Shown here: positions 224 to 58,677 of the stretch, piece by piece
Position numbering within the stretch: the first letter of the stretch is position 1
How the letters are laid out: each line of letters opens with the position of its first letter
Virus record (IMG/VR): IMGVR_UViG_3300034120_000663
Reading direction: 5' to 3' (one strand)
DNA length: 64,000 nucleotides
Source: an uncultured virus (IMG/VR IMGVR_UViG_3300034120_000663)
Lineage: Duplodnaviria > Heunggongvirae > Uroviricota > Caudoviricetes
Position numbers and translations under genes: made by a program
The notes under the pieces: model-generated
What the model was told of the DNA's origin: nothing
Databases searched by the model: none
What the model saw: the letters and a program-made list of their open reading frames with translations, nothing else

Positions 224-349
224 GGCGGTTGGTTCTCCCTAGTGGTGAGTGATGGAGCGAGATGCTCCCCGGTACAGCCATTGCTGGCTGCACTGGGCAA
301 CCCCTCGCAGGGTTGCGGCGCACGAACCGTGGTGTCCATCCCACGTTGA

Positions 350-5445: not shown

Positions 5446-5455
5446 GGAGAACAAC

Positions 5456-5734
5456 ATGCCATCAATCGAACGCTCTGGAGAGACATTCTCCGGCTACAAC
5501 AAGCCGAAGCGCACACCAGATCATCCAACGAAGTCGCACGCTGTACTCGCCAAGGAAGGCGATAAAGTAAAGTTGATCCGCTTCGGGCAGCAGGGCGTTT
5601 CTGGTTCCCCAGAGCGCAAGGGCGAGTCAAAGGCTGATGAGAACAGACGTGACTCATTCAAGGCACGTCACGCTAAGAACATCGCCAAGGGCAAGATGTC
5701 CGCAGCCTACTGGGCTAACAAAGAAAAGTGGTAG
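5456..5734 (+). CDS. Small basic conserved phage protein
   Basis: AGGAG RBS; KLIRFGQQG...RRDSFKARH...SAAYWA pattern I recognise from many phages. Confidence 0.75.
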   Translation: MPSIERSGETFSGYNKPKRTPDHPTKSHAVLAKEGDKVKLIRFGQQGVSGSPERKGESKADENRRDSFKARHAKNIAKGKMSAAYWANKEKW

Positions 5735-46951: not shown

Positions 46952-49328
46952 CCCAGGAGCAAGAGTATTCAGAGGAACGGTCGTCACCTCTTCTCCCTAT
47001 ACGGGAGAGGTGTCTGTGCTGCTGAGCGGGTTCGGCGTAACAGACAGCGTCATTAAGATCTCAAACGTTGCTCGCCGCATGGTCAACAACCGATGGGCCG
47101 TTCCCTCGGTTGGCGATCAGGTGTACGTAACTGGTGACGACGACAACCTATCCAACGCCTTCCTCCTGTCAGCGCATAACGACGACAACGCTGCCACTGG
47201 TGAGCCGATGGGTCACGAGGACAAGTCCCAGTCATCGGTCTCGTTCGACAACACCACTAGGACGTTCTCAATCTCCCCAACGGGAATACAGCATGCTGTG
47301 TGGTGTCGTGGGCGAAGGTTCGTCAAAACCACGACGGAGATACTTCAGATTCCCAATACGACTGGGTCGTACGCTATCTACTACGACGAGAACGGGTTCC
47401 TTGGGTATCAAGCGGATCGCTTCACGCTGGAGTTCCAGACCCCCACCTCGTACGTGTACTGGAACGCCACGACGCAGAGGGCAGAGATCTTCGCAGACGA
47501 GCGACACGGCATTGTGCTTGACTGGCAAACACATGAGTACCTGCATAGGACTCGCGGTGCGTCGCTCGCCAATGGATTTGGTGCTTACGGTTTCACCATT
47601 AGTGGCTCTGGGTCAGCGAACAGTGACGCTCAGATCAGTTTCGCTAACGGCACGTTCTTCGACGAAGACCTAGAAGTATCGATCACTCACTCTGCATCAC
47701 CGGTCGCCAACACATGGCAACAGCGCATTCAAGGACCGGCGTACATCCCCGTGTTCTATAGGTCTGGGACGGCATGGCATCGTGATACCGCCACATCCTA
47801 CCCATTCAAGATGGGTACTACGTACCCCACGTACAACACTTACAGTGCTCCTAACTGGAGCGCTACTGAGATGACCAATCACAAGTTCAGTGTTACTTGG
47901 GTCGTTGCGACGAACAACCTGTCTGAGCCGGTTATTGGGATCATGGGCCAGGGTGAGTACAACAATATTGGTGCAGCAGAGGCAGCGCTGTGGGCGGAAC
48001 TTGATCTCACTTCGTTGCCCATCCAAGAAATGCGACCCCTGTACAAGGTAGTGTTCCAAGTATCTAGTTCGTACTCTAACGCTACTAAGACGGCTATTCG
48101 TGGTGTGTACGATCTGCGTACAACTACCATTACAGCGGGAGCGTCTTCCGTACCCATCGTGCTAGACCACGGGTCACTGACTGGTCTAGCGGACGACGAC
48201 CACACTCAGTACTTCGACCAGACTCGTGGCGATGCCCGCTATTTGCAACTGGGGTCTAACCTCCCCGCAGCGCAACTAACAGGCACTGTTAACACTGCCC
48301 GACTGTCTGGTTCTTACACCGGTATTACCGGAATTGGTAGCATTACTAACAGCCCCAACTTCATGTCTACTGGAACCCTGACCTCATCCCCTGTGACGGG
48401 TCTCCAGATTCTCAACATGACTGCTGGTAACGATGCGTTCCTAACACTCCACGTAAGTACGGACTTCGCTGGGTACTTCGGCATGGGTGGAGCAGAAAAC
48501 GATCTTGTTGTGGGCGGCTTCAGTTACGGAGCAAACCGTTACCGGGTATACCACAGCGGGAATACAAGCCTGTGGTCAAGTTTGTCCCCGACGTTTAGCG
48601 GACTCACGGTAAACAACACGACCACGATCAACGCCAACATCAACTCTGGCGGTACGGGTGGTACTGCTGGGTTCTTTGCCTATGACCGCAACACCCCATA
48701 CACCACCCACGTAGGGCTGTTCTGCTCCTCTTCAGTTGGACGCATCTACCACAGTGGCTATGGGGGGAACATTATCTCGTTCAACTCCAACAGCATCACT
48801 ATCCCTGTTGTCACTGAGTTCAGTCTCGCTGGTACGCCAACGGGAGACGGCGCTGGAGTCATCCGTGCCACGTCTGATGGTTCTCGCACAGGAATCACCA
48901 TCAAGTCATCATCACTATCAACTAGTAGTGACTTCTTTATGGCGTTTTATGATACAGCAAATACAACTAACGCAGTTGGTAGTATCTTTAGTCCTGCAAG
49001 CACATCAACTACGACCTACTCCACCACTTCTGACTATCGCCTGAAGCGGGACGATGCGCCATTGGCTGGTTCGCTGGAGCGGGTAATGGCCCTTCGCCCC
49101 ATCAGTTACCGCTGGGAGCGGTTCGCTGACAGTCCTCTGGAGGAAGGCTTCTTTGCACATGAGGTACAGGAAATCGTGCCCTGTGCGGCGTTCGGAGAGA
49201 AAGACGCCGAGGACGAAAACGGCAACATCGTCGCCCAGCAGATGGAACTATCCCGCCTAGTACCAGTGTTGGTCGGAGCGGTGCAGGAACTGGCAGCCAA
49301 AGTATCCCTACTGGAGAGCGCACAATGA
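46944..49328 (+). CDS. Baseplate spike (gpV/gp5-type OB) fused to a fibre with a C-terminal S74 intramolecular chaperone
   Basis: FRGTVV...VPSVGDQVYV; LDHGSLTGLADDDHTQY; TSDYRLK...GFFAHEVQEIVP...LVPVLVGAVQEL. Confidence 0.8.
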   Translation: MLNPGARVFRGTVVTSSPYTGEVSVLLSGFGVTDSVIKISNVARRMVNNRWAVPSVGDQVYVTGDDDNLSNAFLLSAHNDDNAATGEPMGHEDKSQSSVSFDNTTRTFSISPTGIQHAVWCRGRRFVKTTTEILQIPNTTGSYAIYYDENGFLGYQADRFTLEFQTPTSYVYWNATTQRAEIFADERHGIVLDWQTHEYLHRTRGASLANGFGAYGFTISGSGSANSDAQISFANGTFFDEDLEVSITHSASPVANTWQQRIQGPAYIPVFYRSGTAWHRDTATSYPFKMGTTYPTYNTYSAPNWSATEMTNHKFSVTWVVATNNLSEPVIGIMGQGEYNNIGAAEAALWAELDLTSLPIQEMRPLYKVVFQVSSSYSNATKTAIRGVYDLRTTTITAGASSVPIVLDHGSLTGLADDDHTQYFDQTRGDARYLQLGSNLPAAQLTGTVNTARLSGSYTGITGIGSITNSPNFMSTGTLTSSPVTGLQILNMTAGNDAFLTLHVSTDFAGYFGMGGAENDLVVGGFSYGANRYRVYHSGNTSLWSSLSPTFSGLTVNNTTTINANINSGGTGGTAGFFAYDRNTPYTTHVGLFCSSSVGRIYHSGYGGNIISFNSNSITIPVVTEFSLAGTPTGDGAGVIRATSDGSRTGITIKSSSLSTSSDFFMAFYDTANTTNAVGSIFSPASTSTTTYSTTSDYRLKRDDAPLAGSLERVMALRPISYRWERFADSPLEEGFFAHEVQEIVPCAAFGEKDAEDENGNIVAQQMELSRLVPVLVGAVQELAAKVSLLESAQ

Positions 49329-49423
49329 AAAAGGTGTCGGCTTTAATCGCACTAGCAGTATGCGTATACCTATACGTATTAGTATCTGTGTATAGGGCGT
49401 ACAGGGAGATTGAGTACCCATGA
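49325..49423 (+). CDS. 32-aa single-TM peptide (not in ORF track)
   Basis: MKKVSALIALAVCVYLYVLVSVYRAYREIEYP; ATGA overlaps at both ends. Confidence 0.5.
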   Translation: MKKVSALIALAVCVYLYVLVSVYRAYREIEYP

Positions 49424-49803
49424 AAAGCATTGACCTTCCGTTCAATTTCTCCAATGGTCGACTGTCCGTGGTGTCGGACTACGCTGCTGTAATTGAGCAG
49501 AAGATCCTTGACGTTCTACTCACGTCAAGGTCTGAGCGGGTCATGCGACCAAGGTATGGGGCCGGTGCCTACTCTCTGCTGTTTGAGATCATGGACCCTA
49601 ACGTGTGGGCAGACTTCAGAGCAGAGGCCATGATGGACATCAACGAGTCCGTTGACGGTGTTATTGTCAACGACATTCGTATGTCAGTAGATGATCACGG
49701 CGGGGATTCGGGGTATGATACCGTTCTATCAATCGCGGTGATGTACACGATTCCACCTGATAAGACGAACACCCTTTCGTTCTCCGTTAGCCAAGGGTTC
49801 TAG
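49420..49803 (+). CDS. Baseplate wedge protein (gp25/gpW-like)
   Basis: LLTSRSERVMRPRYG. Confidence 0.88.
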   Translation: MKSIDLPFNFSNGRLSVVSDYAAVIEQKILDVLLTSRSERVMRPRYGAGAYSLLFEIMDPNVWADFRAEAMMDINESVDGVIVNDIRMSVDDHGGDSGYDTVLSIAVMYTIPPDKTNTLSFSVSQGF

Positions 49804-49811
49804 GAGCGACA

Positions 49812-51296
49812 GTGTCTACCTTCAACTATACGAGTCGCGACTTTGGAACGATCAAGGCAGATCTGACATCACGTGCTGCTGCGATGATCCCAGACTGGAC
49901 TGACCGCAGCCCAGCAGACTTCATGGTGGCCCTCATTGACCTGTGGGCATACTCAGCGGACGTACTCCATTACTACGTCGACAGGGCTGCCACAGAGGCG
50001 TTCCTGAGCACCGCTACTCAAAGGGATAGCGTCCTGGCGTTTGCCAACCTGTACGACTACACGCCCAACTTCAGGCAGAGCGCCGCTGTTTCCGTACAGG
50101 TGTCCAACCCTACGAATGCCAACATCGCCATCCCCTCGGGTACTCGCTTCTACGCACAAGTCGGCTCTAACCGAGTTGAGTTCTACGCAACTACGACAGT
50201 AACCGCTGCTAGCAACTCGTCAATAAATGTGTCGTGCACGCAGGGTGTGCAGAAGACTGACCAGAAGGTTGCGTCTCTGAACACTACCGCTGGAACGAAG
50301 AGTGATGGAACGTCCACACAACGCTTCACGATCCCTGATCCGTTCGTAGCACCGAACACCGTTAGTGTGTTCGTAAAAGAGGGCAACGTCACGTCCCAGT
50401 GGACATACGACGATCAGTTTACAAACTCTTTTGCTGCCTCCAATACGTACTCCTTGTACGTAACTACGGACGGGTACGTGCAGATCGTGTTCGGCAATGG
50501 TGTCAATGGACGAATCCCCGCTACTGGGTCGGACATTTCAGCGTCTTACTCTATCAACTCGGGCACCTCGGGTAACGTAGCAGCGAACACCATCACTAAC
50601 TTCGTCAACCCAATCACAGGGCTGAACGTGATTGGCAACGCATTTGCCGCCGTAGGTGGCGCAGACGCAGAGTCGATTGACTCACTTAAGCGAAGCATCC
50701 CGGCTACACTGCGTACACAGAGTCGCGCTGTGTCTCTCACTGACTACGAAGACCTAGCACTTAGCGTGCAAGGCGTGTCCAAGACCAAGGCCGTGTACGC
50801 CGGAACCGGTGCTAACGGCGGGTCTGTTACTGTGCATGCCGTTGCATACCAGTCAGACTTCCTGACTGGTGCGAGTGTTATCCCCGTCAGTTCTACGCTG
50901 CGGAATGATGTGTCTAGTTCGCTGCAAGCAGCCTCAATGCTCGGCATTACGAACATCACCGTTCCGTCCACGATTACATGTGACAACGTAAAGATCACGA
51001 TGGATGTAGTGGTCAGGTCGAACTACGTGCAGGAGTGGGTGCGTCTAGATGTGCAGAATGCCATCGATTCACTGTTCACGTTTGACCAGACATCGTTTGG
51101 TAAGAGGCTCCCTCTAGGTGATGTGTACCGAACCGCTATGGCGGTTGCTGGGGTTGACTACGTGTCGATCACGGCGTTCAACACTGACGGTGGTTCGTCT
51201 GTACAGACTGCCGTGTCGTCGGCGTCCACTAGACTCCTTAAAAAGGGAACAGTAACGATTACGGCTACAGGCGGGGTAACCCCTAGTGGCTCGTAA
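49812..51296 (+). CDS. Baseplate J-like wedge protein
   Basis: YTSRDF, FGNGVNGRIP, GGADAES, RAVSLTDYE. Confidence 0.9.
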   Translation: MSTFNYTSRDFGTIKADLTSRAAAMIPDWTDRSPADFMVALIDLWAYSADVLHYYVDRAATEAFLSTATQRDSVLAFANLYDYTPNFRQSAAVSVQVSNPTNANIAIPSGTRFYAQVGSNRVEFYATTTVTAASNSSINVSCTQGVQKTDQKVASLNTTAGTKSDGTSTQRFTIPDPFVAPNTVSVFVKEGNVTSQWTYDDQFTNSFAASNTYSLYVTTDGYVQIVFGNGVNGRIPATGSDISASYSINSGTSGNVAANTITNFVNPITGLNVIGNAFAAVGGADAESIDSLKRSIPATLRTQSRAVSLTDYEDLALSVQGVSKTKAVYAGTGANGGSVTVHAVAYQSDFLTGASVIPVSSTLRNDVSSSLQAASMLGITNITVPSTITCDNVKITMDVVVRSNYVQEWVRLDVQNAIDSLFTFDQTSFGKRLPLGDVYRTAMAVAGVDYVSITAFNTDGGSSVQTAVSSASTRLLKKGTVTITATGGVTPSGS

Positions 51297-53421
51297 CTCG
51301 TTTACATTTAAGCAATCCACCAACGCCTCTGTAGGGTCGTTCCTACAGATCTCTCCGAGTTACTTTGCTGGGTCTGACGATGCCTCTGCTCTGCGGTCAG
51401 ACGGATACGTAACTGCCCCCACGAACACGTCGGGCACAGAACTGTTCTTGGATGCGGAAGCCACCGGATACAGCACTATCACTCTTGATTGGCAGATCAA
51501 TGGGTCGTTGGCTACCGTAATCACGGCAACCCCTCAAGTAACAGCGCTACTACTGGTGTACAGCCCAGTCGGCGCACCACAGACTGTTGCTGACGGGACT
51601 CTGCTAAATAACATCACCTCAGCAGCGGGGACATACGTCCACACTGGTCTTAATAGTGGATCATGGGCGTATTACTCGCTGTTCTCTCAGTATGAGGGAA
51701 TCGGAGTTAACTCTTGGTATGAACTAATCGGGTCTACTGAAGTGCTAGTTCCTAAGAACTACGGCTCTACCGATGACCTGTGGAAGCGCATCCCAAGGCA
51801 CTACCGCTTAGCGGATGAGTCGTCAGGGAATACCCCGTCAAGCAACGATGGAGATGGTCATCCCCTTGTTGGCGGGCCGCTCTACAGAACTCTCAGCGTA
51901 TTCGGCTGGGACATCGACAAGATGCGGACTCTAGTTGACTACCAGATGGTTGCTAAAGACCCAGCAAATGCTGCAACTGAGGCGCTAAACGCCTTGGCGT
52001 TTGAGGTGGGGCTTCCCATCACAGCCACTGATCTTGGCCCAATTCGTCTTCGTAACGCTCTGTGGAACGTGCGTACGAACACGTCAACTAAGGGGACGCT
52101 TGCTGGCGTTGAGCGCACACTGTCAAATCTGACTGGTTCTGTAGTAGAGATCGTCCCCACGAGGCCGAACCTGCTCACCGCAGCACAGCGAGCCTTCTCT
52201 GGGGGGTTCACCCCAGCATCCGCAGGACTGCCGACAGGTAGTCAGTGGAGTTACACTTCCGCTGCATCATTGGCAGCAAGTGCTGGTGGCGTGCGTGTGT
52301 CGCGGGCATCTGGAACTGACTTTGCGCTTGCGCTCATCTCCACCCGAGTTACCATTTCCAACGCTGAGCAGTACAGGTCGTACTACGATGTGCTCCCAGC
52401 AACCGGAGCGTCAGTAGTTGGATCAATGATGACGGGAGCGTCAGTATCGCTATCGTCGTTCACCTTCGACAGTGTCACGGGAGTAGTCAGCGAGGTTCCT
52501 GCTGGATTCCAGGCACAGTTGAGCGGCGGTGACCGGTGGTATCAGGCACCCCAGACGCACGGCATTGTAGGCAACGGTTCCTACACGAGCGGAACCGTCT
52601 ATTTGACTATTGCCGTTGTCATGAATGCCACTGGTGCTCTCTTGCTGAGGAACCCATCAGTCAACTCACGTAACAACTACCCATACGTCATCAACGTGTA
52701 TAGCCAAAGGGTCAACCTGATCAAAGATCCTCGGTTCACTACGTCGACACTAAACACTGGTGCGTCTGGGTCGGCTAACTACTGGTGTGTGTACCCGACA
52801 GCGGGAAGTTGTACTGCCGCTGTTGGCAGTACCTCGCTCAGTATTACCTCTGCTACCGGTGCATCCGTGTCAGTCAACACGAACGTGACTGGTAACTACT
52901 TTGCCACTCGTACTGGTGTTCCATACAACTTCTCCATCATCGACGACAAAGAGTCAATCGCCTCTGTTCGGCTGGTGTCAGTTACTTATGGAGTAATCGC
53001 ATCTGCGACAATCCCGTATGCCGTGGAGCAGACAGCGGCAGGCAAGCGCAGATACTGGGAGTTGCTCAAAGCGTATGACGCTCCCTGGTTCCCCCTAAAC
53101 ATCAGTGACTGCTACTTTGAGTTCTCTCTTGGAGTAACTGGAACGGTGCTGCTACAGCAGCCTCTGTTTGAGCCACTACTTCGATACGGTGCCTACTTTG
53201 ACGGCAGCAGCACGAATGGTGGCTGGCTGCGTGGTACTGGATCAACTGGTAGGAGTGACTACCGGTGGGGTTCTGGTGGAACGAACACGGATTTCTCGTA
53301 CTACTCTACTGACTACGGGCGAATGGTGTCCACTGTAAACAGAGTCATTCAGTACTACGTCCCTGTTACCGAGTCGAACGCAAGTGCCTCTCTCTTCTTC
53401 AACAAGATCATCGGATCGTGA
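51286..53421 (+). CDS. Baseplate/tail protein (gpI-like core with extensions)
   Basis: LWKRIPRHY, LSVFGWDID, KGTLAGV. Confidence 0.7.
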   Translation: MARNSFTFKQSTNASVGSFLQISPSYFAGSDDASALRSDGYVTAPTNTSGTELFLDAEATGYSTITLDWQINGSLATVITATPQVTALLLVYSPVGAPQTVADGTLLNNITSAAGTYVHTGLNSGSWAYYSLFSQYEGIGVNSWYELIGSTEVLVPKNYGSTDDLWKRIPRHYRLADESSGNTPSSNDGDGHPLVGGPLYRTLSVFGWDIDKMRTLVDYQMVAKDPANAATEALNALAFEVGLPITATDLGPIRLRNALWNVRTNTSTKGTLAGVERTLSNLTGSVVEIVPTRPNLLTAAQRAFSGGFTPASAGLPTGSQWSYTSAASLAASAGGVRVSRASGTDFALALISTRVTISNAEQYRSYYDVLPATGASVVGSMMTGASVSLSSFTFDSVTGVVSEVPAGFQAQLSGGDRWYQAPQTHGIVGNGSYTSGTVYLTIAVVMNATGALLLRNPSVNSRNNYPYVINVYSQRVNLIKDPRFTTSTLNTGASGSANYWCVYPTAGSCTAAVGSTSLSITSATGASVSVNTNVTGNYFATRTGVPYNFSIIDDKESIASVRLVSVTYGVIASATIPYAVEQTAAGKRRYWELLKAYDAPWFPLNISDCYFEFSLGVTGTVLLQQPLFEPLLRYGAYFDGSSTNGGWLRGTGSTGRSDYRWGSGGTNTDFSYYSTDYGRMVSTVNRVIQYYVPVTESNASASLFFNKIIGS

Positions 53422-53672
53422 ACGTACTACTTAGTGGTCTAGTCGTATACAAAATCGTGCAGTTCATCAAGGCAACGGCACCAGTGTCGATCCCCCCGTG
53501 GGTTGAGTTACTCCTGTCAGTGCTGATCAGCATCGGTGTGACGTTTGTCACAGTAGACGGTAACGTCGTATTTATGGGCCTTGTAGTTGCTACACTGGCA
53601 GAGGCGACGCAGATGATCATGCGACTCGCTGCCTTTGCAGGAGACCTCCTGCTGAGGAAGAGCATTAAGTAG
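53418..53672 (+). CDS. Small membrane protein
   Basis: Two to three hydrophobic helices. Confidence 0.6.
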   Translation: MNVLLSGLVVYKIVQFIKATAPVSIPPWVELLLSVLISIGVTFVTVDGNVVFMGLVVATLAEATQMIMRLAAFAGDLLLRKSIK

Positions 53673-53690
53673 CACAACAAGGAGAACACA

Positions 53691-54527
53691 TTGGCTAAGG
53701 CACTACCACCCGTGTATGGCATCGCTGGAAGGGGCCACGCCAAAGCGTCGGTCGTCTTGACCGGCCTCAAGGATCTTCCTGGGCCGTTCATCCTACCCAT
53801 GTACAAAGAGCCTTACGCCATCATGCATAAGGTCTACAGTTACTTCAACGACATCCTCTTCAACGATGAAGTGGATCGGGTAAACGAGGTCTACGGCAAC
53901 GTTGATCCCAGTGACTGCTTTGAGTGGGACGTAACGTGGGACTCCGTTCTGGGGACGCTCAACAGCAAGTGGTCAGACGACAAAGTCGACCAGGCAGTAG
54001 TCGACGCTCTGATTGAGCACCGTGGTGAAAACGATCCGACTCTTCTGATCCTGTGGGATGACTCCAACAGTGAGGCGATGGAAACGCTCTGCTCCTATGC
54101 ACTTGAGCATGGCGTCAAGGTACTTGACCTGGCAAATGGCCTGGCCCCAATTGCTCTTGAGGAAGAGGAGCAGGCTCCTGAGCAGAAGGAAGAGGAGCCT
54201 GAAGAGGAACACAGCAACTTCACCCATGAAGAACTGGTGGCGATGCCTCTCGCATCACTCAAGCGCATGGCTACTGCACTGGGTCACGAGATCCCCTCTC
54301 GTCCATCGAAGGAGCATCTCGCAGAGATGATCTCTGGAGAACCCACCACTGAAGAGGTGGCAGTGCCAGCACCGAAGGAAGAGAAGGCGAAGACGGAAGA
54401 CGCCCCACTGGAGAGCAACGTGGTCTCCATCACAGTTGTCTACGACAACGGCGCTACTGTCGTGCTGAACGCCTCTGGCGCTACTGGTGCGCTCGCAAAG
54501 GAACTTGTCAAGGCATACCTGTCCTGA
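53691..54527 (+). CDS. Hypothetical protein with a Rho-N/HeH-like helical motif
   Basis: AAGGAG RBS with TTG start; FTHEELVAMPLASLKRMATALG...SKEHLAEMI. Confidence 0.65.
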   Translation: MAKALPPVYGIAGRGHAKASVVLTGLKDLPGPFILPMYKEPYAIMHKVYSYFNDILFNDEVDRVNEVYGNVDPSDCFEWDVTWDSVLGTLNSKWSDDKVDQAVVDALIEHRGENDPTLLILWDDSNSEAMETLCSYALEHGVKVLDLANGLAPIALEEEEQAPEQKEEEPEEEHSNFTHEELVAMPLASLKRMATALGHEIPSRPSKEHLAEMISGEPTTEEVAVPAPKEEKAKTEDAPLESNVVSITVVYDNGATVVLNASGATGALAKELVKAYLS

Positions 54528-54553
54528 CGTAGTCCAGAATCACCAAGGAAGAG

Positions 54554-54577
54554 GGCACCCTTCGGGGTGCCTTTTTC
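54554..54577 (+). terminator. Intrinsic terminator closing the structural operon
   Basis: GGCACCC-TTCG-GGGTGCC-TTTTT. Confidence 0.88.
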
Positions 54578-54602
54578 TTGTACCCAGTGTCTCACGATGA
54601 GA

Positions 54603-54694
54603 CAAAGGAAAGAGGGGCCGCTACACCCCCGCTTATTGGGCGGGCTTCGCAGCGGCCCCTCTTCCAGGGGACAAGGGAGAACCACCAACCTTGT
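54603..54694 (-). ncRNA. Candidate ~92-nt sRNA with an anti-Shine-Dalgarno loop
   Basis: 5' hairpin ACAAGG-UUGGUGGUUCUC-CCUUGU, 12-bp terminator stem (54611-54622/54651-54662) and a UUCCUUU tail. Confidence 0.6.
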
Positions 54695-54700
54695 GCCAAC

Positions 54701-54729
54701 ATCTTAGCAACAGGGTTGGGCTGGATCAA
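54701..54729 (-). promoter_or_regulatory. Sigma70-type promoter for the candidate sRNA
   Basis: TTGATC-N17-TAAGAT with an extended TGn on the minus strand. Confidence 0.65.
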
Positions 54730-54792
54730 CTCAGTTAGCGAATTTCTTAGAGAACTACAACATTTCTGCTCAGATCACCAGCCCCCAAGGGT

Positions 54793-54879
54793 GTGCCCAA
54801 CGTCACATCATGTGACGCTCGTCACCCTCAAAGTAGTGCACGTACTACACTAATTCGGGTGTCATGTGACGAACGTCAC
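54793..54879. promoter_or_regulatory. Three more CRP-type palindromes
   Basis: 54793-54806 (degenerate), GTGACGCTCGTCAC 54812-54825, GTGACGAACGTCAC 54866-54879. Confidence 0.65.
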
Positions 54880-54945
54880 ACCCCCAATCCCCTCAAATAG
54901 TTGCTATCGCTCTATAGCGTAGTAGCACATAGTTATTGTGTTGAG

Positions 54946-54979
54946 TTAATTACAAGTACCTAACGGTACTTGTAATTAA
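54946..54979. repeat. Perfect 15-bp AT-rich inverted repeat
   Basis: TTAATTACAAGTACC-TAAC-GGTACTTGTAATTAA. Confidence 0.85.
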
Positions 54980-55037
54980 GTGGCGGAGCCACCTTCGTAA
55001 ACTAGCCTGGAAATCTGTAGAACTGAGTGGACGTGCC

Positions 55038-55293
55038 GGTGTAGGGGCGCTAGTCTTGCGCTGCTGCTGACGGGCAGACCGCAAACCCAACCGCGTAACG
55101 GAGGGCGTTAACCACGGGCGTCAGTACGTGGAAAAGGTACCGGCCTTTTAACCGGAGGTTTCCACGCACCAGAGTATGTGGCGAGCGACGGCTCTAGAGA
55201 CCCCCCAACGGCCCGGCCAGGTCAGGGGGGTCTTGACGTTTCAGGGGTAGGAGAGAAGAAATCTCAGCCACGTAGACCAACCGGCTTGAAACG
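55038..55293 (+). ncRNA. Candidate multi-stem structured RNA (unknown family)
   Basis: Stems 55065-55072/55119-55126, 55127-55134/55159-55166, 55171-55175/55191-55195, 55198-55206/55225-55233, 55237-55244/55286-55293. Confidence 0.5.
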
Positions 55294-55313
55294 CTGCGAT
55301 CTGCGTGTATGGT
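55286..55313 (+). promoter_or_regulatory. Putative promoter of the replication operon
   Basis: TTGAAA-N16-TATGGT, upstream of the AAGGAGAACCAC RBS. Confidence 0.4.
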
Positions 55314-55339
55314 AGATGGCCTAGCAAAGGAGAACCACG

Positions 55340-56068
55340 ATGATCTACGGCAAAGACCCAGATGCCGTGCTCACTGAAGAGCAGCCCAAGACTCGGTGGC
55401 ACAAGAGCACCACCAGCCTCACCAAGAACGACTCCAGCCCACAAACCGTGGTGAGCATGTTCTCCTACTTCAACTTCTCAGCCAGGAAGCGCATGCTCCC
55501 ATCAGTCGTTGACTGGTCTGAATCGCTGGCGTTCAAGTCCCAACTCAAGCGCTGGGTGAGTCTTGGGATCACCACCGACCAGTTCACGAAGATGTGTGAT
55601 CTCTTCTTCGCCACCTACAAGGGCACCACGCCGTGGAAGAGTTTCACGTCCACAGCAGTTCGTGACCGTCTCATTAGTGAGACAGCACCGGCTGGTGAGT
55701 CGTTCACCGAGATGGAGCAGTGGCTGATGAACGACCTAGCCTACGATGATTACCTCCCGTGGACTAGCCGTGAGAACTCAGAGTCAGCATCGCTGGTTCT
55801 CCGCTTCCCTGGCCTGCTTCACACGTACCCTGACGTGGTGCTTGATGTGGTGGAGAAGGCGTCAGGCTCCGATGCCATCGGCCTGCTGGAAGACGTGATG
55901 TTGCTGACGGACAATGGTGTCCGTGGTGCTGAGCGAAAGGCAGCAGTTGCCCGCCTACAGCAGAGCGATGTGCGTGTACCAAAGTCAATGATGACGGTGT
56001 CGACTCTTCGGTCACCTGCTACCTCGTTGCTCGCTGCGATCACCTTGGCAAGGTCTGACAAGTCATGA
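55340..56068 (+). CDS. Hypothetical protein heading the replication module
   Basis: Strong RBS; ATGA-coupled to the DnaC-like gene. Confidence 0.7.
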   Translation: MIYGKDPDAVLTEEQPKTRWHKSTTSLTKNDSSPQTVVSMFSYFNFSARKRMLPSVVDWSESLAFKSQLKRWVSLGITTDQFTKMCDLFFATYKGTTPWKSFTSTAVRDRLISETAPAGESFTEMEQWLMNDLAYDDYLPWTSRENSESASLVLRFPGLLHTYPDVVLDVVEKASGSDAIGLLEDVMLLTDNGVRGAERKAAVARLQQSDVRVPKSMMTVSTLRSPATSLLAAITLARSDKS

Positions 56069-58365: not shown

Positions 58366-58374
58366 GGAGAACCA

Positions 58375-58677
58375 ATGAGCGAGCAAGACATCGTGGAACG
58401 GCTACGGGCTGAAGTTGTCCCATGCCCCGGCAGGGGATTGGACGGGCACGGTATGCGGCACTGCGCCGAGTGTTGTTTCGGCAGTGGCATCGAAGCAACC
58501 AGCGAAGCCGATCTTCGGATCATGCTGCTTGCCCGAGATGCCGCCGACCAGATCGAACGGTTGCGAGCCGCAGGCGATGCGCTGGTGCAACTGATCTACC
58601 TGAATCCGAACACCCCTTCTCAAGAAGACTGGGATGCGGCTGTCGCCGCATGGCGGGAGGCCAGTCGTGAGCGGTGA
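58375..58677 (+). CDS. Cassette protein (DIVERLR/EIERLR family) with Cys motif
   Basis: MSEQDIVERLR...AADQIERLRAAGDAL...WREASRER. Confidence 0.7.
   Translation: MSEQDIVERLRAEVVPCPGRGLDGHGMRHCAECCFGSGIEATSEADLRIMLLARDAADQIERLRAAGDALVQLIYLNPNTPSQEDWDAAVAAWREASRER

Follow-up and report, generated by a model that had tools for sequence, protein, structure and literature searches.

A probable small RNA gene in an uncultured lake phage and the recurrence of its 5' hairpin in an unrelated phage lineage

What occupies the gap between the tail genes and the replication genes of a phage whose genes lie nearly all on the plus strand? The window analyzed here, a 64,000-nucleotide (nt) stretch of the uncultured virus IMGVR_UViG_3300034120_000663, represents most of a tailed-phage genome; it covers 64 kb, and the contigs of relatives extend up to 94-97 kb. 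The last tail gene ends with a stop codon at 54527 and the first gene of the replication module starts with the ATG at 55340. Within this 812-bp gap an initial annotation had placed a self-contained small RNA, transcribed from the minus strand, with a loop antisense to ribosome-binding sequences of several phage genes. Here, the anatomy of the locus and its occurrence in other phages indicate that it is probably a genuine small RNA gene. The best single mechanism that we can propose from the sequence, and one that we hold tentatively, is that the loop pairs with start regions rich in purines, its targets being three phage genes.

Anatomy of the probable RNA gene

The promoter, the hairpin at the expected transcript start, and the terminator claimed for this locus are all present. 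The elements, in the order in which the RNA would be made, are as follows:

54729-54724, minus strand: -35 hexamer TTGATC, followed on its 3' side by a 17-nt spacer (read from the sequence)
54709-54707 and 54706-54701, minus strand: extended -10 element, TGC and TAAGAT (read from the sequence)
54671..54694, minus strand: 5'-terminal hairpin 1, with ACAAGG at 54694-54689, the loop at 54688-54677, and CCTTGT at 54676-54671
54608..54665, minus strand: hairpin 2, or terminator 1, an 18-bp GC-rich stem with an inner 5-bp hairpin
54589..54603, minus strand: small palindromic hairpin GTCTCATCGTGAGAC, with a second exact copy at 396-410
54554..54571, both strands: bidirectional terminator GGCACCC-TTCG-GGGTGCC, which closes the plus-strand tail operon

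The predicted transcript start, 54694, is the first base of hairpin 1 and lies 7 nt past the -10 hexamer. Hairpin 1 has a 6-bp stem and a 12-nt loop, TTGGTGGTTCTC in DNA and UUGGUGGUUCUC in RNA. Hairpin 2 begins 5 bases further on and is followed by UUUCCUUUGUCUC, the U-rich tail running to about 54598. It had been described as a 12-bp GC stem; the GC stem is there, and its length is 18 bp with the inner hairpin. Termination at this point would give an RNA of ~95 nt, and the GGCACCC hairpin is a would-be second terminator of the minus-strand RNA that would extend it to ~150 nt. The GTCTCATCGTGAGAC copy at 54589-54603 sits within the 3' part of the RNA; the window holds five matches to it at up to 2 mismatches (0.39 expected), exactly two of them perfect. 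The predicted fold of the 161-nt stretch reaches -83.3 kcal/mol (z = -5.5), a value equalled by none of 200 shuffles. A consensus promoter scan did not list the promoter of the RNA; its rule called for at least 9 of 12 hexamer matches, and the hand count is 8 of 12.

The locus had also been said to hold no open reading frame (ORF), which is true only in a qualified way. Three mechanically called ORFs overlap the region, on the minus strand at 54592-54729 (45 amino acids [aa]) and 54440-54688 (82 aa) and on the plus strand at 54578-54853 (91 aa), but their starts lie inside the -35 box, the hairpin, or a terminator, and none is preceded by a Shine-Dalgarno (SD) sequence.

A natural variant of the locus was found as one 140-nt contig in one of four sequencing runs examined. 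It carries 11 substitutions and one insertion, all within 54703-54782. Five of the 17 spacer positions are changed, versus none of six in the -35 box and none of three in TGn. The -10 hexamer becomes TAATAT (54703 C>A, plus strand) through a change at one noncritical position, with T1, A2, A5, and T6 of TAnnAT kept, and 54673-54702 shows no difference at all. Although the numbers are small, the fact that the changes avoid the -35 box, TGn, the positions of the -10 hexamer that matter most, and the transcript suggests a working promoter and transcript and thus speaks for the RNA gene that had been proposed. Other contigs from the lake runs share 18-19 nt with the window at 54587-54604 and 54864-54882.

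The element had been taken for an undescribed one, and it appears to be so, as far as Rfam 15 and a limited, partial literature search reach. An Rfam 15 scan of 53500-56000 with E values up to 10 gave six weak matches, none of them on the hairpin, and megablast and blastn of 54400-55400 against GenBank phages gave no match. Searches with the flanking 242-aa and 278-aa proteins returned only a fragment of the same phage that begins past the intergenic region, or nothing. The nearest record (G001) lacks coverage of 48000-55400, and the 3' body of the RNA has no exact match among viral contigs.

The same hairpin in a second phage lineage

An 18-mer comprising the loop and the 3' half of the stem of hairpin 1 has exact matches in four viral contigs. 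BLAST of the window against these contigs found only 20 nt in common, GGTTGGTGGTTCTCCCTTGT. The contigs belong to podovirus-like lake phages with an SU10-type portal that shares about 30-34% identity with those of Pelagibacter, Roseobacter, and Caulobacter phages. There the hairpin is flanked by a weak DUF551 match and by a small gene preceding the portal, and its neighbors are on the same strand. A promoter, TTGGTC or TTGGCC-N17-TATAAT, ends 7 nt 5' of the hairpin CAAGG, and the full hairpin (CAAGGG / UUGGUGGUUCU / CCCUUG) is followed by an 18-nt linker and a strong rho-independent terminator with 5-7 U. Rfam gave no match on the RNAs of this lineage either.

Chance alone would provide roughly one 18-mer match in a collection of that size, an estimate scaled from the 6 genome and 15 metagenome matches of far larger scans, nearly all in unrelated contexts. 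It is thus the promoter distance, the stem, the terminator, and the intergenic setting that make the match meaningful. All six genome matches and the other metagenome matches, including L049, were set aside for their unrelated contexts. L059, which has both the 18-mer and a terminator, was rejected as a third lineage; its contig is not from a phage, and the match, at the 3' end of a TonB-receptor-like gene there, was considered to be due to chance. L050/L058 and L051, with a short hairpin context and neither promoter nor terminator, were left out. No arrays, as would be looked for if the RNA were an anti-CRISPR mimicking a solitary repeat, were found among the 6 matches in 185,579 species genomes or the 15 metagenome matches.

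A search with the terminator of the second lineage recovered 10 contigs (L060-L069). Six of them carry the same hairpin (type A), and a further type A copy, L055, came from the metagenome scan. The remaining contigs carry very different 5' modules under the same promoter and terminator: two have type B, one type C, and one type D. Each of the modules A to D is purine rich at its 5' end, with a CUCC, CCUCC, or UCCC run toward its 3' side. By our own reading of the sequences, the module types set the shared terminator in different frames, leaving no conserved reading frame. MW202675, whose portal is 67.6% identical, lacks the RNA locus. Matches of 9-11 nt between second-lineage modules and their own records were discarded as being at chance level, one of them in a region conserved whatever the module type.

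Among the type A copies and the window (four distinct sequences), the closing pair is G.U, G-C, C-G, or A-U and one inner G-C is replaced by G.U, while 11 loop letters are constant. The stem thus covaries, and the hairpin recurs with its promoter spacing and a terminator in an unrelated lineage, which upholds the description of the locus as a self-contained small RNA gene. The presence of an identical hairpin in an unrelated group of phages suggests a common regulatory job.

The leader operon of related phages

A search with the helicase recovered 32 loci from relatives (helicases 53-63% identical; genes called with a simple script). In loci that reach far enough the gene order is kept, namely, baseplate J, tail genes, gap, DnaC-like gene, 148-aa gene, and helicase. 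The map of the window is as follows:

24348: large terminase
29396: portal
31991: major head protein
37836: sheath, then tube
49812: baseplate J
54527 (stop): last tail gene, 278 aa, convergent to the RNA
56065, 57127, 59863, and 60795: replication module with DnaC-like loader, DnaB-like helicase, primase, and SNF2 helicase

No tRNA or tmRNA was found in the window. Among cultured phages, the BRock group of large Streptomyces myoviruses comes closest, with 59.6% identity in the major head protein and 34% in the helicase, and an actinobacterial host is possible.

In many relatives the gap contains two small minus-strand genes, p56 in 18 of the 32 loci and p89 in 12, and the promoter, hairpin 1, and hairpin 2 of the relatives run straight into these genes. 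The window lacks p56; its p89 homologue is a 92-aa gene on the plus strand at 5456-5734 (p89 at 5459-5731). The 92-aa protein (phrog_7595) shares 67-79% identity with proteins from Synechococcus, Roseobacter, and Vibrio phages (144 records), a conservation unusually high for phages of different phyla. The p89 of the relatives is paired with a lysine-rich 56-aa protein beneath the hairpin leader.

Two kinds of leader were distinguished. The first has TTGATT-N17-TACACT, 7 nt, the stem CAAYAC/GUGUUG, a fixed linker, and a 16-bp second hairpin, with UUGGUCGUCCUU, UUGGACAUACCCU, UUGGUUGUACCCU, or UUGGCAGGUUAAAUUUCCUA as the loop. In an RNAalifold alignment of five such leaders, none of the seven pairs of hairpin 1 was broken and hairpin 2 showed four compensatory pairs. 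In the second kind (L003, L006, L009, and L012; for example, L006 3791-3826, minus strand), the loop core CUUUCCCUCCUUUCU is fixed and the stem covaries, GCAAGGG, GCGGGGG, or GUGGGGG being accompanied by matching 3' halves; no SD sequence is visible at the p56 start codon. We take CUUUCCCUCCUUUCU to contain the anti-SD core, its CCUCC-UUUCU part presumably resembling the 3' tail of 16S rRNA. A 16-mer of the relatives' leader matched 50 contigs, but the leader itself is present in only 8 of them. For cultured phages with a p89 homologue, no similar leader was present in the stretch read of cyanophage KBS-S-2A, and the gene table of Roseobacter phage CRP-603 leaves no intergenic gap ahead of the gene.

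In the five loops of the window lineage, a variable middle is flanked by UUGG on the 5' side and by a run of pyrimidines on the 3' side, and the GG:CC closure is invariant in all five aligned relatives. Since the window element agrees with these leaders in strand, position, and promoter spacing and also in the size of the hairpin and the UUGG start of the loop, it appears to be the same leader, now ended by terminators. The element looks mosaic, with a stem that resembles those of the second leader kind and the type A RNAs and a loop laid out as in the first kind. The idea that the loop pairs with tRNA 3' ends (it starts with UGGU, like the NCCA-binding motif of the T box) was dropped, since acceptor stems of the kind that the other loops would require are not known among tRNAs.

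Candidate targets, competing explanations, and significance

All five complementary matches to the hairpin first quoted for this window exist. Two of them are GGAGAAC matches, at 5446 and 53681, and all but the one at 53681 are as follows:

230..240, minus strand: AGGGAGAACCA, 6 nt 5' of the ATG at 223 of a leftward gene leaving the window; duplex, -23.0 kcal/mol
55329..55338, plus strand: GGAGAACCAC, over the SD sequence of the 242-aa first replication-module gene (ATG at 55340); duplex, -19.5 kcal/mol
58366..58374, plus strand: GGAGAACCA, directly 5' of the ATG of the 100-aa gene after the DnaB-like helicase; duplex, -15.9 kcal/mol
5446..5455, plus strand: GGAGAACAAC, a weaker candidate ahead of the 92-aa p89 homologue

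The leftward gene (74 aa within the window) had been called a helix-turn-helix gene, and it has no match in Pfam or PHROGs. Contiguous pairing with the hairpin extends over 11 nt at the gene starting at 223, 10 nt at 55340, and 9 nt at 58375, and the loop-site duplexes, at -16 to -23 kcal/mol, compare with a cost of -6.7 kcal/mol for opening the hairpin.

A count over the full window, both strands, bears out the excess of the complementary 9-mer: GGAGAACCA occurs five times versus 0.56 expected, and none of 100 shuffles reached five. One copy is the RNA gene itself. Three of the other four lie 0-6 nt ahead of the start codons of the candidate genes at 223, 55340, and 58375. The fifth copy, at 55802-55794 on the minus strand, is antisense within the 242-aa gene, and 3 nt on there is an ATG with an 8-codon frame; every nonself copy is therefore proximal to a start codon. 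Five hairpins were also compared with the start regions of five genomes (102-185 start regions each, crude gene calls). At least 10 nt of contiguous pairing was obtained only for the window hairpin with the window genome and in none of the 24 other combinations, of which just 5 reached 9 nt. Three start regions at 9 nt or more were matched by 20 of 20,000 fully shuffled hairpins and by 468 of 20,000 when CTCC was kept.

From these features, a mechanism can be proposed in conditional terms. A sigma-70-type promoter with an extended -10 element would start a minus-strand RNA at about 54694. The RNA would open with hairpin 1 and end at the 18-bp terminator or at the next one, and it would descend from the 5' leader of a leftward p56-p89 operon that is gone from this site in the window. 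UGGUUCUCC, the pyrimidine-rich 3' part of the loop together with the first stem bases, would pair with GGAGAACCA over the SD sequence and spacer and block ribosome entry. The candidate targets are the mRNAs of three genes: the one that opens the replication module, the one that follows the helicase, and the leftward one at the left edge of the window.

Several results weigh against such pairing. With CTCC kept in the shuffles, the P value is 0.023 (about 0.001 for full shuffles), which is not strong. Folding predicts a 2-bp closure within the loop that leaves only a tetraloop open. In a duplex scan of the whole window, the leftward-gene site ranked joint third (-27.4), the 55340 site joint 16th (-24.4), and the 58375 site outside the top 25. 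The four relatives with other loops reach maxima of 7, 7, 8, and 9 nt at their cognate start regions, the level of noncognate combinations, which means that loop and target do not covary in the relatives examined. Start regions with GGAGAAC are also found, though less often, in relatives that have other loops (2 of 185, 2 of 137, 3 of 161, and 0 of 177, versus 6 of 102 in the window; the genome with 3 of 161 has a fourth copy about 15 nt further upstream). The genes concerned are not homologous to those of the window, so part of the motif's occurrence would reflect a habit common to this group of phages. For the second lineage (four records of 6-22 kb, 11-38% complete), the RNA gene itself holds the only GAGAACCA, and pairing at the start regions of 24-27 genes reaches 6-7 nt at best. 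Finally, the 24 sequencing runs that contain the stretch are all lake-water metagenomes, and none is an RNA run. The proposal of a trans-acting anti-SD RNA thus has only moderate statistical support in the window and does not pass the check on covariation of loop and target; relatives with other loops lack matching start regions.

Repeats lie close to both the RNA gene and the leftward gene:

54812..54879: two copies of an operator-like palindrome, GTGACGNNCGTCAC, ahead of the promoter of the RNA

The motif, a 14-bp palindrome (GTGACGNNCGWCAC), has seven sites in 1033-1540, near the leftward gene, and these two in 54812-54879, amounting to 14 strand matches versus 0.05 expected. These sites look like the operator set of one DNA-binding protein that would join both regulatory regions. 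The first 2,000 nt of the window have a G+C content of 61% versus about 50-57% in most other 2-kb bins, with sparse coding and many repeats. The intergenic region of the RNA gene also holds a 34-nt near-perfect palindrome at 54946-54979, with 15-nt arms TTAATTACAAGTACC and a 4-nt center, which may be an origin or a protein-binding site.

Pairing with SD regions must be weighed against other explanations that accept the RNA. It could be directed at the host, with the invariant loop pairing with a bacterial RNA that phages of both lineages have to control and the phage start-region matches being incidental. Such a role would suit an identical 20-nt hairpin in two lineages that share no other DNA, the lack of complementary phage sites in the incomplete second-lineage records, and the similar G+C contents (51.6-53.4% in five records of the L037 lineage versus roughly 50-61% per 2-kb bin of the window). 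It would also suit the origin of the window phage from lake-water runs, and host-directed phage small RNAs are a known kind (bioRxiv 10.1101/2024.10.31.621285). However, none of the six matches of the 18-mer in 185,579 species genomes is in a hairpin or start-region context, which means that there is no near-perfect host site, and the nearest cultured relatives, though distant, infect different phyla (Streptomyces versus Pelagibacter, Roseobacter, and Caulobacter), making one shared host mRNA less likely. We consider a host target unlikely. A leftover is also conceivable, in that the p56-p89 genes were deleted or moved elsewhere while their promoter and leader hairpin stayed behind to give a short functionless transcript. 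The homologous promoter and both hairpins do lead into p56 and p89 in relatives, and the window keeps p89 alone, at a distant site on the opposite strand. A mere relic is nevertheless quite improbable, given that hairpin 2 of the window is different and a much stronger terminator with a U tail, that the promoter boxes and transcript are spared in a variant patch that is 15% divergent, and that in the second lineage the hairpin persists between a promoter and a terminator, in a unit that has no ORF of its own.

A protein rather than an RNA might read the hairpin, which would then be a 5'-end stabilizer or a boxB-like site for a regulator or antiterminator, with the loop setting specificity. In all three contexts the hairpin is at the extreme 5' end with a terminator-like hairpin next. 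The common UUGG start and pyrimidine run of the loops, the invariant GG:CC closure, and the lack of cognate RNA targets in four relatives are in keeping with a protein as well. The boxB/nut feature of same-strand genes past the terminator is present in relatives and in the second lineage but absent in the window, where nothing lies past the terminators for read-through and the convergent 278-aa tail gene fills the space; a pure stabilizer would leave the loop invariance across unrelated phages unexplained. We give this route a low probability, about that of the relic. Much less probable is an origin-associated transcript, in which a short leftward RNA would activate or prime replication, as was proposed at one time for lambda pO/OOP. 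The intergenic region just upstream of the replication module is rich in palindromes and operator-like repeats, and the pO promoter matters for lambda replication (PMC12197685). But R-loops form poorly from a highly stable GC-rich hairpin RNA, and the second-lineage hairpin lies between packaging and portal genes rather than at a replication module. Finally, the RNA gene would be illusory if AAGGGAGAACCACC were a real or decayed ribosome-binding site of a small plus-strand ORF. The plus strand does offer GGAG-N11-TTG with a 15-codon frame, and the 91-aa ORF overlaps the region. The insertion at 54781 in the variant would frameshift that ORF, and the second-lineage hairpin is on the strand of its promoter, terminator, and genes, so that its complement is no ribosome-binding site there; a plus-strand signal is thus hardly credible. 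Pairing of the loop with start regions in the phage remains our tentative choice.

How does such an RNA compare with known systems? The c4 RNA is cut from an operon transcript that also carries its target, and it controls the antirepressor of a temperate phage. Like the window RNA as proposed, c4 of P1 and P7 is a small phage RNA whose loops pair around a ribosome-binding site and block translation, and small loop differences set specificity between the related phages (PMC12197685). Unlike c4, the window RNA has its own promoter and terminator, its target sites are scattered, and Rfam gives no C4 match. In addition, no repressor, antirepressor, or integrase family was found among the 55 window proteins scanned, and nothing supports the suggestion of an immunity switch like that of P1 c4; c4 serves well as an analogy for the mechanism but does not place the RNA in its family. 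Lambda OOP and P22 sar are promoter-to-terminator phage RNAs of 68-77 nt, and OOP is likewise transcribed leftward beside replication genes (PMC12197685). OOP and sar act on overlapping or adjacent transcripts, whereas the window RNA overlaps no coding region, its last terminator (54554-54571) lying clear of the tail gene stop at 54527. The host-directed lambda RNA (bioRxiv 10.1101/2024.10.31.621285) is also phage encoded and trans-acting, but its targets are host mRNAs and were found by experiment. The C-rich loops of the actinobacterial 6C RNA (RF01066) resemble the pyrimidine-rich loop of the window, which could pair with purine-rich SD regions; the window loop is, however, U/G rich at its 5' side, and the Rfam scan of the region gave no match to 6C. 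A hairpin at the very 5' end with a terminator after it is also typical of small RNAs derived from 5' leaders or attenuators and of 5'-terminal stabilizer hairpins. The window RNA differs from these in having no downstream genes and a loop that is itself conserved across unrelated phages.

Phage regulatory RNAs are known mainly from a few model phages of enteric bacteria. Here, a 20-nt hairpin is letter-identical in two lineages otherwise sharing nothing, its origin from an mRNA leader is visible, and it is the seed-bearing module that is swapped while promoter and terminator stay constant. At least four cassettes occur in one promoter-terminator frame and the same cassette occurs in two lineages, on which basis we offer a speculation that is more likely wrong than right by a wide measure. 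The 5' hairpin would be an exchangeable specificity cassette that moves among unrelated lake phages, and the RNAs would be decoys that compete with ribosomes for chosen SD-plus-spacer sequences. As a joint claim, at the same low confidence, pyrimidine-rich loops would copy the anti-SD tail of the ribosome, and a loop swap would reset the target range of a takeover or timing device at the level of translation. The element is short, easily synthesized, and open to clear mutational analysis. Pairing of the loop with SD regions, if real, would reveal how phages evolve and trade RNA "addresses" that control translation; binding of the hairpin to a host RNA or to a protein would indicate a weak point that the hosts have in common.

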